Below, in pieces: positions 11,347 through 63,216 of a stretch of DNA of 64,000 nucleotides. The notes below the pieces were generated by a model. The model was not told the DNA's origin. It worked only from the letters and a program-made list of their open reading frames with translations, and ran no database searches. Where the stretch lies: contig OX597831.1 of assembly GCA_951406725.2 (NCBI GenBank), forward strand, positions 38,378,001-38,442,000. The letters run 5' to 3'. The position numbers were made by a program, and so were the translations under genes. Origin of the DNA: Octopus vulgaris. Lineage: Eukaryota. Position 1 is the first letter of the stretch. Each line of letters starts with the position of its first letter.

Positions 11347-11411
11347 ATCTGTTTCAACACACGACTTCACATAAAAAATCTTGCACAACAAATATTTAAA
11401 CGTATATATAT

Positions 11412-12337
11412 ACAACTCAACTCCAGTCTGATCTATATGCTGTGAGTCAATGGGCAGACAGAAACAAAATGCAACTGAATGAGGGAAGATTTGATCTGAT
11501 GCATTTTGGAAGAAATTCCTCCCTAAAACAACCATACTCTCTTCCTTCAAGGGAACCGCTCACAGCCTCTAACAATATCGGAGACCTGGGTGTAATTGTT
11601 GATGACGATCTCACTTGGAGTGCACACATCAACAAGAAGGTCGATGTAGCTCGTAGGATGAGTTCCTGGATCTTAAGAACTTTCCGTTCCAGAGAACAAG
11701 GTGTCATCATACCACTTTTTTCCTCCTTTGTACGGCTACACCTTGAATACTGCTGCCCACTGTGGTCTCCCCATACAAGACAAAACATCTCCAGAATTGA
11801 GTCACTCCAGAGGGCACTCACTAAACGAATTGAAAGCATGGCTGCTCTCGATTATTGGGATCGCCTTAAAGCCATGAAACTTTACTCCCTCCAGCGTCGC
11901 CGTGAGCGGTACATCATTTGTACGATGTGGAGAATATACCGCCAACTTTGCCCAAACGACCTTAACATTGGCTTCAAGGTTCATCCAAGACTGGGACTAC
12001 GGGCCATACGTCCCCTGCCCAATTCAAGATCACAACATACATGTACACTGCAACATAATTTCTTTTCCTGAAAAGGCCCTGCCCTATTTAACATTGTCTC
12101 GAGGGAGATCAAAGAGGAAAAGGATCCCATCAACTTTAAACGGAGTCTGGATATATTCCTTCAAAGAATACCAGATAAGCCACCCATAATTGGATACAAC
12201 TCACCCAACAAGAACTCACTACTTGAACAAAACTTGACTTAAACAGGATTCGAATAATCCTATCAGGTAGTGCTATTAAGTTAGACATGGCTCGGACCAA
12301 TCTTTGGTCGAAACATATCTAAGTTTATCTAAGTTTA
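11412..12337 (+). mobile_element. CR1-group LINE, 5'-truncated (RT C-terminus, 3' UTR and tandem tail)
   Basis: ORF 11442-12071: WADRNKMQLN..DLGVIVDDDLTWSAHI..FVRLHLEYCCPLWSPH..IESLQR..LYSLQRRRER; continues frameshifted; ends in (atctaagttt)2. Confidence 0.9.
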
Positions 12338-14257: not shown

Positions 14258-14710
14258 TGCCTTTGCACAGCTTCTCACGCTGGAGATGTACTACAGTGTC
14301 AGCTGTTCAATACTTGTGAACTAAGATAACACCTCTTATTTTTCGAGCACCTTTCGGAGTTTTCGAGCGGTTTCACTCAGTGATGTTTTCTGTAAGTGTT
14401 CCACCCTTATCGCAGCCCCTATTTTTTCTACGTACTTCTGGAGACTTTCGCTCACTGTTCCCAGACCTCCGACAATTATTGGCACTACTGCTACCTTTTT
14501 CATCGAACACAACTGCTTATCTTCCCAAACTAACCTGTCATGTCTCTCGACTTTTCTTTCTTCCTCATCGCATACCGTGTTGTCAGCTGGGCATGCTATA
14601 TATATGATCCAGCATAGTTTGTGTTCTTTTTCAATTAAGACTATGTCCGGCTTCCTATTCTCTATCTCCTAGACGCACTGAAACTTAAAATCCCATAGGA
14701 ACTTTGCGTT
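14258..14710 (-). mobile_element. Second R4/Dong-type 3' fragment
   Basis: FLWDFKFQC..ENRKPDIV...TARKLRKVLE on the minus strand; adjacent to a (TAA)n array. Confidence 0.7.
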
Positions 14711-39130: not shown

Positions 39131-39415
39131 CTATATAAGTAATGCAAGAACATTACAAAAAACTCAAATCCGCGCGCATCCAAATATACACATAATTAAC
39201 ATGTGTATTATACTTAGCGTCTCTCTCTCTCTCACTCTCAATATATCTATCTTTTTTCTCACTCTCTCTCCCTCTCTTCCCCCTCTTTCTCTCTTTGCAT
39301 ATATGTACATGTGTGTATATGTGTGCATGCGTGTATTTATGCGAGTGTGTCTGTGTGCGTCCATATGTGTGTGAACATATGTGCACATATTTAAGTATAT
39401 AAACATTGGTGGTTT

Positions 39416-39467
39416 GCACCTGAAGAACGTGTTTGGATTTTCAGACACGTGAAACTATCAGTAGCGC
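39416..39467 (+). ncRNA. Type I hammerhead ribozyme motif
   Basis: gcac-CTGAAGA-acgtgtttg-gatttt-cagacacgt-GAAAC-t-atc-a-GTA-gcgc; intact core, 9-bp stem II, 3-bp stem III, stem I with one mismatch. Confidence 0.75.
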
Positions 39468-39740
39468 CCGAAGATATGTATTGTGATCCTTAAACAAAAA
39501 TATCTCACTCACACCAGATGGAGTGCTCTGTTTGTTGAATTATACCACGTACCAAAATAAGCAACATGGATATCCAGAGGTAATGCAGAACGATTGTTTC
39601 ACGCAACTTAATTTAATTTGGACAATGCAACCATTATATCAATTTAAATGCAGAGCAATCCTCAGCTGCACAAAGACATAGAATTCAATTAGATTGAGAC
39701 AGAAGTAACATATTCATCTGAATATATCTAACTATGCATA

Positions 39741-53794: not shown

Positions 53795-54305
53795 TATATT
53801 ATATTAAATTAGAGACAAAACCACTATTAGGCAAATCAAACAATGAAAAACTTAAGCCAATACATAAGATATTTAATTTATATTATTTAAATATATAACA
53901 AAATTATTAAAAAAATATAATTAATATCACACTACGATCGTTTCATGGCTGCTAACTTCTTCAAATTTTTGAGTCACAGTCATTCATCAGGTGGTTTAAA
54001 TATTTAAACATCGCCAAGATAAATATTTAAACCAACTGATGAATGAGTGTGACTCAAAAATTTGAAGAAGTTAGCAGCCATGAAACGATCGTAGTGTGAT
54101 ATTAATTATATTTTTTTATAATTTTGTTATATATTTAAATAATATAAATTAAATAATCTTATGTATTAGCTTAAGTTTTTCATTGTTTGATTTGCCTAAT
54201 AGTGGTTTTGTCTCTAATTTAATATAATATAATATTTTACTATAAAATTGGATTCAATCCTAAATCTGATTTTTCCCTGTAAGTTTGGATTTATTCCCTA
54301 ATATT

Positions 54306-54310
<5 letters not shown>
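53795..54310. mobile_element. Fold-back element: about 212-bp arms (53795-54006 / 54020-54231) with back-to-back HHRs plus a 3' extension
   Basis: Arms near-perfectly complementary; HHR on minus 53930-53993 (cac-CTGATGA-atgactg..cagccat-GAAAC-gatc-GTA-gtg) and on plus 54033-54096. Confidence 0.85.
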
Positions 54311-54342
<32 letters not shown>

Positions 54343-54380
54343 CTTACATACCTATATATATACATTCGCACACATTCAAA

Positions 54381-54436
<56 letters not shown>

Positions 54437-54589
54437 CATATAGTTATAAATACAAATAGTTATGCGCATGTATTTATGTTTTCAAAAATAATTATGGCGA
54501 AATCAGATTTTAGGACACCATTCTAAATGTCGAAACTGTTTTACCAATTCAAGAAGATTACACGTGACTTTCACGTAAATTTTATTTTC

Positions 54590-54870
54590 TACTCTAATTT
54601 TAAGAACACAACTCACAGGGTACCAGAAGACATATTTTAAGATGTGTCTCGAAACATTTTTAGCATCCTATACAAAGTAACTCTAAAAGTATCAAAATTG
54701 AAGAAATAGTTATTTCATCAACAATGATTGTCAAATTGAAAATACCACAATGTTTTCCAAGGATACTTCATAACTGTGCGATATCTTTTAATATCTTCTT
54801 CTATTTGATATTAAAGAATTGTTTCCAAAATAGGAATTTAGCTTAAAAATCTATTATTGGCATCATCTTC
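54590..54870 (+). repeat. Inverted duplicate of 57945-58225
   Basis: aactcacagggtaccag / ctggtaccctgtgagtt; catcaacaatgattgtca / tgacaatcattgttgatg; aaaataggaatttagctt / aagctaaattcctatttt. Confidence 0.85.
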
Positions 54871-54986
54871 CTTTTCTTTCTTCATATTACATTATATTGT
54901 AATGCTATTTTCGATGTTATTTTCAACCAACATATGTATCATATATATGTATATGTCTATTGTGTACGAATGTATATATGTATATG

Positions 54987-55047
<61 letters not shown>

Positions 55048-55082
55048 CTCTATATATATATATATATATATACATATGTATT

Positions 55083-55133
<51 letters not shown>

Positions 55134-55146
55134 TATATATATATGC

Positions 55147-55180
<34 letters not shown>

Positions 55181-55529
55181 TATATAAAATCACTTCTGTT
55201 TGCCTGACTGTGTGTCTCTAGGATCTCGAGCATTCTCCATCCGATTGCGCTCAAATTTGATATGTAGATACCGACGATATCAGGGCGTGTATAAGTCTTG
55301 AAAAATTACAAAATCGACTCCAGGTGAGAACGCGATCGATAAAGTGAATAAAATCGTTTCTCTTTGGAATAGAAAAAAGTGTATCTTTATCTCTACTTTT
55401 GCTGGTGTCTCAAATGTAGGTTATATCAGCGATTCTCAAAGGAACGGTTGGACAATATGTTTTGAGAAAATTTGACTTAAATCCTTTTACAACTTCAGCA
55501 CCGTCCATTGGACGGTGGGCGTTTTGCTC

Positions 55530-55530
<1 letters not shown>
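55181..55530 (+). mobile_element. Non-autonomous Helitron
   Basis: 5' tatataaaat..ctgtttgcctgactgtgtgtc; 3' hairpin caccgtcca-t-tggacggtg (55499-55517) followed about 10 nt later by CTCG (CTAG-like) and T. Confidence 0.7.
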
Positions 55531-55577
<47 letters not shown>

Positions 55578-55578
55578 C

Positions 55579-55906
55579 TAATAAATATTAGGGAATAAAT
55601 CCAAATTTACAGGGAAAAATCAGATTTAGGATTGAATCCAATTTTATAGTAAAATATTATATAATATATAATATTAATTAGAGACAAAACCACTATTATG
55701 CAAATCAAACAAAGAAAGACTTAATCCAATACATAAAAAAATTTATACAAATTAAATAAAATTAAGTTATCCACTACAATTGTTTCTTGTCACTTCTAAG
55801 GACATTCATCAGGTGGTTTTCAGACCTTCTATTAAATTTTAAATTACGAAGTCTGAAAACCACCTGATGAATGTCCTTAGAAGTGACAAGAAACAATTGT
55901 CTCTAA

Positions 55907-55917
<11 letters not shown>
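55579..55917. mobile_element. Second fold-back element of the same family with back-to-back HHRs
   Basis: Minus HHR 55771-55816: ccac-CTGATGA-atgtc..gacaa-GAAAC-aatt-GTA-gtgg; plus copy 55860-55901; 55579-55655 is the reverse complement of 54235-54310. Confidence 0.85.
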
Positions 55918-55961
<44 letters not shown>

Positions 55962-57789: not shown

Positions 57790-57930
57790 TAGCAGAATGA
57801 TTAGCTCGCCGGGCTAAAGGATTTCTTTTGTCTTTACGTTTTGGTCAACTTTGCCTTCCATTTTTTCGGGGTCGATAAATTAAGTACCAGACAAACGAAG
57901 GGGTCAATGTAATTGACTAGCCCCTTTCCG
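57790..57930 (+). mobile_element. Variant Nin-domain SINE (internal deletion)
   Basis: gttttggtcaactttgccttccatt..aaacgaaggggtc. Confidence 0.7.
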
Positions 57931-58249
57931 AAGAAAGGAAACTAAGATGTTGCTAATAATAGATTTTGAAGCTAAATTCCTATTTTCGAAACAAATCTTT
58001 AATATCACATAGAAAGCAATATTAAAAGATATCACACATTTATAAAGTATCTCTGGAAAACATTGTGATATTTTCAACATGACAATCATTGTTGATGCTA
58101 TAACTATTTCTTTAATTATGATATTTTTAGAGTTGCTTTGTGTAAGATACTAAAAACGCTTCGAGCCACATCTTAAGATATGGCTCCTGGTACCCTGTGA
58201 GTTCTGTTCTTAAAGTTAGACTACACAATAAAATAGTTATTATAATGAA

Positions 58250-61399: not shown

Positions 61400-62418
61400 T
61401 ATTGCTACGGGTCTTTGTTTTCTTCCGTTTCTCGCCGAGTGTTTTCCGTACACCTAGGGCTAAGAAGCTCATTGTATGCATTCTCGGATTACACACGCAA
61501 ATTCACAGGTAAAATATATATTTAAAAATTAATAAATAAATAAATTCATGGATGGATGTTGTTTTTCACAGCGATAATGCTCTTCTCAGTACATGAGCCG
61601 TTCCAGTTAACACGATTTTTTGCACTTCCTGTAGGGATGGTAAGCCTGGTATCATTTTCAAATAGGTTTCAGTACCTTTTTTCATCATTGCTAGAGATCC
61701 TGCAATCATTGGTACTGTAGTCGCCTTGAGATGCCACATTTTTTGCAGTTTCTATTAGCTAGTCTCTATATTTACTGATCTTGTCAAATTCCTTCGCCGC
61801 TATATTGTGATCGCAATGAATACTCATATCAATTAATAAACACATCTTTTTTGTCTGATCTTTTATAATATCCGTTTCATTGGCTTTTATAGTTTTGTCG
61901 ATATGTACGGTGAAGTCCCATAGAATCGACAGATTTTCTGCCTCAGTCACAGCTTCAGGATGGTGTTTATACCATTTGTCAGCGGTTTTGATTTTATAAC
62001 ACCGACATATTGTCCAGTGTAAAATACTGGCCGACTCTGCCATATCTTGCTTTATATTATACAGATGCTAAGAGTCTACACTCTGAGATTAGGTGGTCTA
62101 TAGTTTCAATCTCATCGTTACAGAATCGGCATTTTAGGTCAGCTCCATTTTGTATCAAATTGGCTTGGTAGTTCCGGGTTAATAAGCTTTCGTTTTGAAA
62201 GGCTAATATGAAACTTTCACTCTCCGCTTTTAGCCCTGAGCTTCGTAACCATTGGTGCGTGTGTATCTGGTCGACATCAGCTTGTTTGGTACGGGCCACA
62301 TGCTTGCCATGCAGAGGTTTCAGTTCCCATCTGCTAGCTAATTTTTCATGTGCTTTTGTCTTTGCAATTAATTATATTTTCTTTGCAGCAGCAGTTGGCG
62401 CATTTCTTTCAACGTAAT
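61400..62418 (-). mobile_element. R4/Dong-type non-LTR 3' part (CCHC, RLE endonuclease and 3' UTR)
   Basis: QWLRSSGLKAESESFILAFQ..CRFCNDEIETIDHLISEC..KWYKHHPEAVTEAENLSILWDF..CLLIDMSI..KEFDKISKY. Confidence 0.88.
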
Positions 62419-62462
<44 letters not shown>

Positions 62463-62477
62463 TATTATTATTATTAC

Positions 62478-63216
<739 letters not shown>

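Follow-up and report, generated by a model that had tools for sequence, protein, structure and literature searches.

Two fold-back elements in Octopus vulgaris are probably head-to-head, ribozyme-bearing 3' ends of one abundant repeat family

The 64-kb stretch of Octopus vulgaris DNA analysed here (hereafter the window) contains two fold-back elements, element 1 at 53795–54310 and element 2 at 55579–55917, each with a pair of hammerhead ribozyme cores. We consider it likely that each hairpin consists of two head-to-head, ribozyme-bearing 3' ends of one abundant repeat family, left by a single dead-end insertion in which the enzyme of a Penelope-like element (PLE) copied the pseudo-LTR (pLTR) alone. 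So read, the locus shows what insertions of a known retroelement class ordinarily leave behind, and the arrangement itself is already in print.

To locate the ribozymes, a hammerhead descriptor (CTGATGA-N15-45-GAAAC-N4-GTH) was run over the 64-kb window. It matched at 53933–53990(−), 54036–54093(+), 55775–55812(−) and 55864–55901(+), in every case inside the two elements. The chance expectation was 0.03 matches, and four or more matches were obtained in 0 of 100 shuffles. This bears out the two elements and four cores that the initial annotation had described. As both cores within each element are copies of each other, the four matches represent two events. The cores lie head to head and are directed away from short central spacers, as had also been claimed; these measure 13 nt (54007–54019) and 18 nt (55830–55847). 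C3 is at 53990(−) and 54036(+) in element 1 and at 55812(−) and 55864(+) in element 2, which gives separations of 45 and 51 nt. Among the four motifs in the window there was no same-strand ribozyme pair at monomer distance. For the hammerhead scan that had been proposed, the descriptor gave these matches; no hammerhead model was among the listed matches of three Rfam scans (all matches in two of them, the best 150 of 206 in the third). The Rfam matches near the elements were mostly to miRNA-precursor or other hairpin models, every one of them below the gathering score. What supports the ribozyme call is therefore the descriptor match together with conservation across the family.

A conserved core, a short stem I and a self-complementary stem III with loop 3 occur together in two of the four motifs, those of the left arms. 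The motif of the element 1 left arm (E1-left, 53930–53993, minus strand) combines a 3-bp stem I, a CUGAUGA core, a 39-nt stem II region, a 2-bp stem III with a palindromic GAUC loop, and a GUA triplet with a predicted cut after 53933. Its counterpart in element 2 (E2-left, 55771–55816, minus strand) has a 4-bp stem I, the core, a stem II region of 19 nt whose A-A mismatch lies beside the core, a palindromic AAUU loop 3, and a GUA triplet with a predicted cut after 55775. The E1-right motif (54033–54096, plus strand) is damaged by private changes: stem I loses its closing pair to an A at 54035, and stem II loses a pair to a G at 54047. The earlier statement that stem I is kept holds for the left arms alone, that is for two of the four motifs, as the closing pair is broken in E1-right and the 3' strand of stem I is deleted in E2-right. 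The palindromic stem III, on the other hand, was confirmed, as the stem III strands of both elements are self-complementary 8-mers, with predicted homodimer duplexes of −10.0 and −6.4 kcal/mol.

Covariation between the elements had been overstated. Their stem II versions are non-alignable, differ in length by 20 nt and each contain a mismatch (A-C, internal, in element 1; A-A, at the core-closing position, in element 2), and the sole two-sided change is that of loop 3, GATC versus AATT (n = 2). The base of stem II is A-U in element 1 and A-A in element 2, and the G10.1-C11.1 pair, called highly conserved in PMC4209133, is absent from both. The consensus given there, an extra nucleotide after A9 together with the G10.1-C11.1 pair, is matched by neither element, and the motif is therefore classed as a variant and not as a consensus minimal hammerhead. 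We also considered the ATG in stem II as a protein start and rejected it; the frames end after 19 and 12 codons and are not common to the subfamilies.

Element 1 is made up of pieces of 225, 212 and 79 bp. It begins with an inverted, 5'-truncated arm of 212 bp on the minus strand (53795–54006), whose short 3' end runs into (TA)n, and continues through the 13-nt spacer (plus strand) into a direct, pLTR-like arm on the plus strand (54020–54231). A one-sided tail of 79 nt (54232–54310, plus strand) follows on the right arm only and ends in (TA)n; it contains GTAAGT at 54279–54284, which we take to be a candidate splice-donor-like sequence. The two arms, of 212 bp each, match except for three substitutions and two indels of one base. 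Element 2 has the corresponding parts: a one-sided 79-nt tail (55579–55657, minus strand) that is identical to the tail of element 1 at 78 of 79 nt, a tail-bearing arm of a different subfamily from element 1 (55658–55829, minus strand), the 18-nt spacer at the apex, and a tailless arm (55848–55919, plus strand) that keeps the core and whose short end runs into (TA)n. The tail-bearing arm aligns with element 1 at the 3' end in 185 columns, at 87% identity, and is unrelated to it upstream of the core.

The tailless arm of element 2 has suffered a 92-nt internal deletion from the cleavage triplet onward, with 4 nt of microhomology at the 55900/55901 junction; the missing stretch corresponds to 55684–55775 in the other arm. 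Element 2 is palindromic over only ~70 nt. Contrary to the description of both as long palindromes, the elements are not symmetric, each having the 79-nt tail on one arm only. We considered the deletion as a trace of in-vivo cleavage, its 5' breakpoint lying 1–5 nt from the predicted cut, and rejected this as unproven. Equally close 5' ends are found in 5 of the 58 possible microhomology pairs in the E2-right arm, and none of the four joints listed for the element 1 arm begins at the predicted cut.

These differences between arms bear on whether the hairpins are real. Palindromes in microsatellites are hard to assemble, and no listed contig covers the whole of the element 1 stretch analysed, as might be expected of a fold-back artefact of assembly or library preparation. 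Such an artefact is nonetheless extremely improbable, because the element 1 arms differ at five sites, the element 2 arms differ by the 92-nt deletion, and both elements terminate at family-typical ends in the published asymmetric manner. A fold-back DNA transposon of the MITE type, whose long inverted arms would be bounded by TA target duplications, is likewise hardly credible. It would account for non-coding palindromes with TA runs on their flanks, but the ends are not symmetric terminal inverted repeats, the tail is one-sided in both elements, contigs of the family end in simple repeats at two places (see below), and the conserved ribozyme core implies selection on RNA.

The two elements are inverted relative to each other, as had been noted, with their tails facing each other (54217–54358 versus 55531–55672, 90%). 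They do not form one unit: the 1268 bp between them (54311–55578) lie outside both elements and are made of microsatellites, a ~305-bp dispersed repeat (54579–54883, with a second copy at 57930–58234) and, at about 55180–55530, a piece that from its terminal hairpin we take to be Helitron-like. In view of this composition, we read elements 1 and 2 as insertions that two subfamilies made independently of each other within a single TA-rich patch. A composite of which they are the two ends was considered and rejected, as they belong to different subfamilies, have other repeats between them and each possess their own complete ends. All four outer ends adjoin TA-rich runs, and a target-site duplication is unreadable within (TA)n. 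The window as a whole is eukaryotic in appearance, AT-rich and dense in microsatellites, and blastn found no further copies of the family in its 64 kb besides the two elements.

The apexes of the two elements are unrelated in sequence, yet in both of them the arms pair up to 16–17 nt upstream of C3, and in neither does an arm extend further than about 35 nt upstream of the core. The shared turn at 16–17 nt hints at a preferred stop, from two elements that were picked for keeping both cores.

Next, we turned to the repeat family in public sequencing runs. Part of element 1 is present in 20 of 24 listed runs. Four runs were aligned to the spacer and right arm of element 1 (three of them are referred to here as X1, X2 and X4) and contained 3175, 3116, 2758 and 221 fitting contigs. 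The repeat family is therefore very abundant; summed contig depths, however, do not give copy numbers. No run containing element 1 is recorded as RNA; the run with 221 contigs was guessed to be RNA, which is not evidence of transcription. Motifs of the family had no matches in metagenome contig and viral contig collections, in the metadata-workbook supplement of PMC8557442 or in supplement file 2 of PMC4209133, and no publication on the family was found among open-licence papers and preprints.

The contigs show which parts of the arm are constrained. Among 25 variant places listed at a frequency of at least 3%, none falls within the 22 positions of the core, stem III and the 3' side of stem I, whereas nine fall within the 39-nt stem II region. 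An invariant core beside a variable stem II supports selection on the hammerhead fold in the parent. At all three substitution sites that separate the arms of element 1 (54035, 54047 and 54168), E1-left carries the majority base of the family, and in X1 about 99.8% or more of the family depth has C at both 54035 and 54047. This means that the E1-right ribozyme has decayed. At four other positions (54050, 54070, 54074 and 54098) both arms of element 1 carry a base that is in the minority in the family, which points to a common template, or a common subfamily, for the two arms.

Two 3' ends occur in the family, one short and one long, and they match the ends of the two arms. At the short end, all four runs have contigs that exit behind 54219 and 54231 into simple repeats or (TA)n. 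At the long end, they exit into simple repeats behind 54305, in 36 contigs of X1 and 26 of X2; exits at 54305 are listed for two of the four runs, with 24 rows shown and 304 not. Upstream of the right arm, the spacer of element 1 is native family sequence and not a dedicated loop, as depth over 54007–54017 in X1 is 49,763, about two thirds of the ribozyme depth, and as an X2 contig (record 9) aligns from 54006 to 54111, joined to the right arm and with 29 other letters upstream.

The apex of element 1, by comparison, is rare. Depth at 53985–53995, an upper bound for copies with this apex, compared with depth at 54029–54039 is 102/75,816, 4/14,704, 409/59,945 and 0/705 in the four runs, that is at most 0.03–0.7% of ribozyme depth in three of them and zero in the fourth. 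As the apex stays below 1% of ribozyme depth, it is not this palindrome that amplifies. In X4, a contig of depth 363 runs across the apex at 54002 with four extra bases, and related junctions may therefore recur.

The initial annotation had proposed a recurring, non-autonomous palindromic unit, and this found no support where it was checked. In its strongest form, the whole hairpin would be a dedicated ribozyme element that is transcribed, cleaves itself and re-inserts as a unit. Two neighbouring copies from two subfamilies that both fold back and turn at a near-equal distance from the core would fit such an element, as would the X4 contig with its near-identical apex and the lack of an ORF after the ribozyme. 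We nevertheless regard it as very unlikely, since the apex of element 1 is so rare among family copies, the spacer consists of ordinary family sequence from upstream of the arm, the two elements have apexes of unrelated sequence, two of the four ribozymes are broken, and the core is predicted to be fully paired in read-through RNA.

A second possibility places the mobile unit in the single arm, as a SINE-like or retrozyme-like RNA moved by some other enzyme (e.g., a microsatellite-targeting non-LTR retrotransposon), with the palindromes arising as later DNA inversions. The arm has no coding frame, in X1 the depth of the 3' module exceeds that of the ribozyme about 20–40 times, and other non-LTR fragments are present in the window, with a zf-RVT match in one of its 81 ORFs (62060–62371). 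The depth excess stems partly from subfamilies that diverge upstream of about 54170, and for this reason we considered the gradient only partly usable as a sign of 5' truncation; loose ends before 54171 mark this divergence. Further, a DNA inversion is not expected to end, in both elements, at the alternative 3' end of the family with the same one-sided tail, and the head-to-tail ribozyme tandems of retrozymes, as described in PMC7229834, are not seen here. We judge this alternative unlikely.

Our preferred reading, insertion by a PLE enzyme, starts from the layout of the elements. An inverted 5'-truncated copy, a direct copy, a one-sided tail and flanking (TA)n together are the insertion footprint published for PLEs (PMC8557442, PMC3846280, PMC11167929). 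The link to pLTR hammerheads and inverted junctions of PLEs that was drawn earlier is thereby supported, and we adopt it as the explanation. PLE parentage is inferred from this footprint and not from protein, as no RT or GIY-YIG sequence is linked to the family; among the 81 ORFs of the window, none carries a PLE domain. The parent family may itself be non-autonomous, and non-autonomous, pLTR-forming derivatives of PLEs have been described (PMC8557442). Against a PLE there also stand the tail, which is about twice the usual 30–40 bp, the lack of the G10.1-C11.1 pair, and the absence of an ORF after the stem II ATG.

Published PLE biochemistry suggests how such a hairpin could have formed. A GIY-YIG endonuclease would nick AT-rich or (TA)n DNA, and reverse transcription would start internally, at one of two sites on an uncleaved element RNA, the interval between the sites becoming the tail. 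Both cDNAs would halt just upstream of the ribozyme, one 16 or 17 nt and the other about 29 to 35 nt upstream of C3, and inverted microhomology of a few bases, in AT-rich sequence, would serve to join their ends. The joining could involve priming from both nicked strands or snap-back of one cDNA, and the data fit either route: priming from both strands would explain the one-sided tail directly, whereas snap-back would directly explain the minority bases common to both arms. The hammerhead would be the minimal, dimer-type pLTR ribozyme of the parent, carried along as a passenger.

A bolder version of this scheme seems to us doubtful, if worth stating. The parent would be a PLE-dependent non-coding RNA of ~300 nt, with its 5' end just upstream of an uncleaved hammerhead, and the palindrome would be its normal product. 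A dimeric enzyme would prime both nicked strands with starts 79 nt apart, and the cDNAs would stop 16–17 and about 30–35 nt upstream of the core, irrespective of the sequence there. If this were true, palindromic stubs across the genome would document two-ended target-primed reverse transcription and reveal the in-vivo start and stop points of PLE copying.

Little function is expected of the ribozymes at this locus itself. Two of the four copies are broken, and the other two are predicted to be base-paired to the antisense arm. Whole-element folds reach −306 and −304 kcal/mol for element 1 and −119 and −126 kcal/mol for element 2, with the core paired in each, and the probability that the core is unpaired is at most 0.01 in read-through folds, also with the fold ended at the ribozyme end. 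In isolation, the hammerhead conformation is less stable than the free fold in four of four motifs. The head-to-head layout means that in a read-through transcript the antisense arm is made before the sense ribozyme, and folding thus predicts that the ribozymes are zipped shut in such RNA. The competition between self-cleavage and a long dsRNA fold that had been envisaged is therefore unlikely. If transcribed, the hairpins may be a source of long dsRNA, with small RNAs and A-to-I editing as possible consequences.

The broader interest of the family lies in how PLEs form their inverted junctions. Self-priming on an antisense template has been proposed (PMC3846280), while in vitro both strands of AT-rich DNA were shown to be cut and extended by a PLE protein (PMC11167929). 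A family of high copy number that has two sharp 3' ends, and whose junctions cluster beside the ribozyme, could be used to test these models statistically.

Among known systems, the closest are the insertion units of endonuclease-bearing (EN+) PLEs, as described by Craig et al. 2021 (PMC8557442) and Arkhipova et al. 2013 (PMC3846280). In the former, PLE insertions have an inverted 5'-truncated copy, a tail of 30–40 bp at one end and a bias towards microsatellites or (TA)n. In the latter, head-to-head is the most frequent PLE arrangement, microhomology deletions are reported, and Pen2a of Adineta has 218-bp pLTRs, a 181-bp inverted pLTR and a 31-bp tail, to which the 225, 212 and 79 bp of element 1 compare. 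Both elements here likewise have an inverted head-to-head copy next to a direct copy and a tail on one arm (two of two elements in each respect), with a junction near the 5' end of a pLTR of ~200 bp; they lie in microsatellite surroundings, and element 2 has a microhomology deletion of the kind reported for dead copies. As in EN+ PLEs, the type I hammerhead is in the sense strand of the pLTR and at most a few hundred bases from the 3' end. Unlike those units, the elements consist of the pLTR only, without an ORF body, have a tail of 79 nt instead of 30–40, lack a readable target duplication and are assigned by footprint, not by protein.

The ribozymes resemble the metazoan PLE hammerheads of Cervera and De la Peña 2014 (PMC4209133) in that helix I is short, helix II is long and the small, palindromic helix III would suit cleavage as a dimer, and in the presence of several families per genome and of close opposite-strand pairs. 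Minimal pLTR hammerheads with a palindromic helix III show weak, dimer-dependent cleavage, and opposite-strand hammerhead pairs 100–700 bp apart were reported in 2014 and attributed to truncated PLEs (PMC4209133). The motifs here differ in that they are without G10.1-C11.1, have C3 spacings of 45 and 51 nt against about 100–700 bp, and are predicted only. Similar, too, is the Poseidon element PAc of Anolis carolinensis (Frangieh et al. 2024, PMC11167929), in which two 3' ends delimit the tail, the target is AT-rich, the ribozyme is retained uncleaved and stem II starts with an ATG. Its tail is the interval between two internal start sites of reverse transcription on the RNA; its main template is uncleaved RNA, and the ribozyme cleaves only when the protein is present. 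The ATG of PAc opens an ORF with the start sites inside, whereas here the frames are short, at 19 or 12 codons.

Finally, the family shares with animal non-LTR retrozymes (PMC7229834; bioRxiv 10.64898/2026.07.22.740005) a non-coding, AT-rich unit of about 300 bp with a type I hammerhead, and retrozymes have been proposed to derive from the pLTRs of PLEs. Retrozymes are head-to-tail tandems in which two same-orientation ribozymes free the monomer between them (PMC7229834). The elements described here are head to head, an arrangement that releases no circle-forming monomer.

The two arms of element 1, a head-to-head hammerhead palindrome (53795..54310), differ by substitutions at positions 54035, 54047 and 54168. 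At all three the derived state lies on the right arm, which carries the 79-nt one-sided tail, and two of the three substitutions break ribozyme pairs. Three substitutions are too few to claim a right-arm bias of derived states. Among contigs from public sequencing runs aligned to element 1, a single contig of run X1 and a single one of run X4 contain an opposite-strand joint between positions 54071 and 54149. This joint is a further inverted junction of the family to which elements 1 and 2 belong, with a different turning point.

Other repeats also occur. A dispersed repeat occurs in two mutually inverted copies in the window (54579-54883 and 57930-58234), which share 87% identity over 305 bp. 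Adjoining element 2, the second hammerhead fold-back (55579..55919), is a non-coding piece set in (TA)n (55180-55530), which ends in CTCGT after a subterminal hairpin near 55499-55517 and which we take to be Helitron-like; no second copy of it was found within the window. Decayed fragments of non-LTR retrotransposons were also observed at 61759-63157 (-), 14336-14668 (-) and 11400-12071 (+). Among the window ORFs, a zf-RVT match was found at 62060-62371 (E 9e-06, slightly below the curated cut-off). The ORFs at 62747-63157 and 14336-14668 presumably resemble a restriction-like endonuclease end, and that at 11400-12071 presumably a LINE RT end; none of these three had a match in Pfam.

Two further hammerhead-like motifs lie at 39414-39470 (+) and 39585-39671 (-), in convergent orientation and about 115 bp apart. 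The first, from a family other than that of elements 1 and 2, has a CUGAAGA core at 39420, a GUA triplet, one mismatch within stem I, a predicted 10-bp stem II and a non-palindromic 5-nt loop 3. The second has a CUGAGGA core at 39665, a GUU triplet, a 6-bp stem I and a long predicted stem II (58-nt), and shows no sequence relation to the family of elements 1 and 2.

The tail of element 1 contains the hexamer GTAAGT at 54279-54284 (+), 26 nt upstream of the long 3' end, which we take to be splice-donor-like from its motif. Among the variant places listed for the run contigs aligned to element 1, no variant of at least 3% falls in this site, and element 2 differs from element 1 there by one base. 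The donor-like hexamer may indicate that the family's parent, putatively a Penelope-like element (PLE), has an intron in its 5' UTR. Such an intron is reported for other PLEs in PMC8557442.
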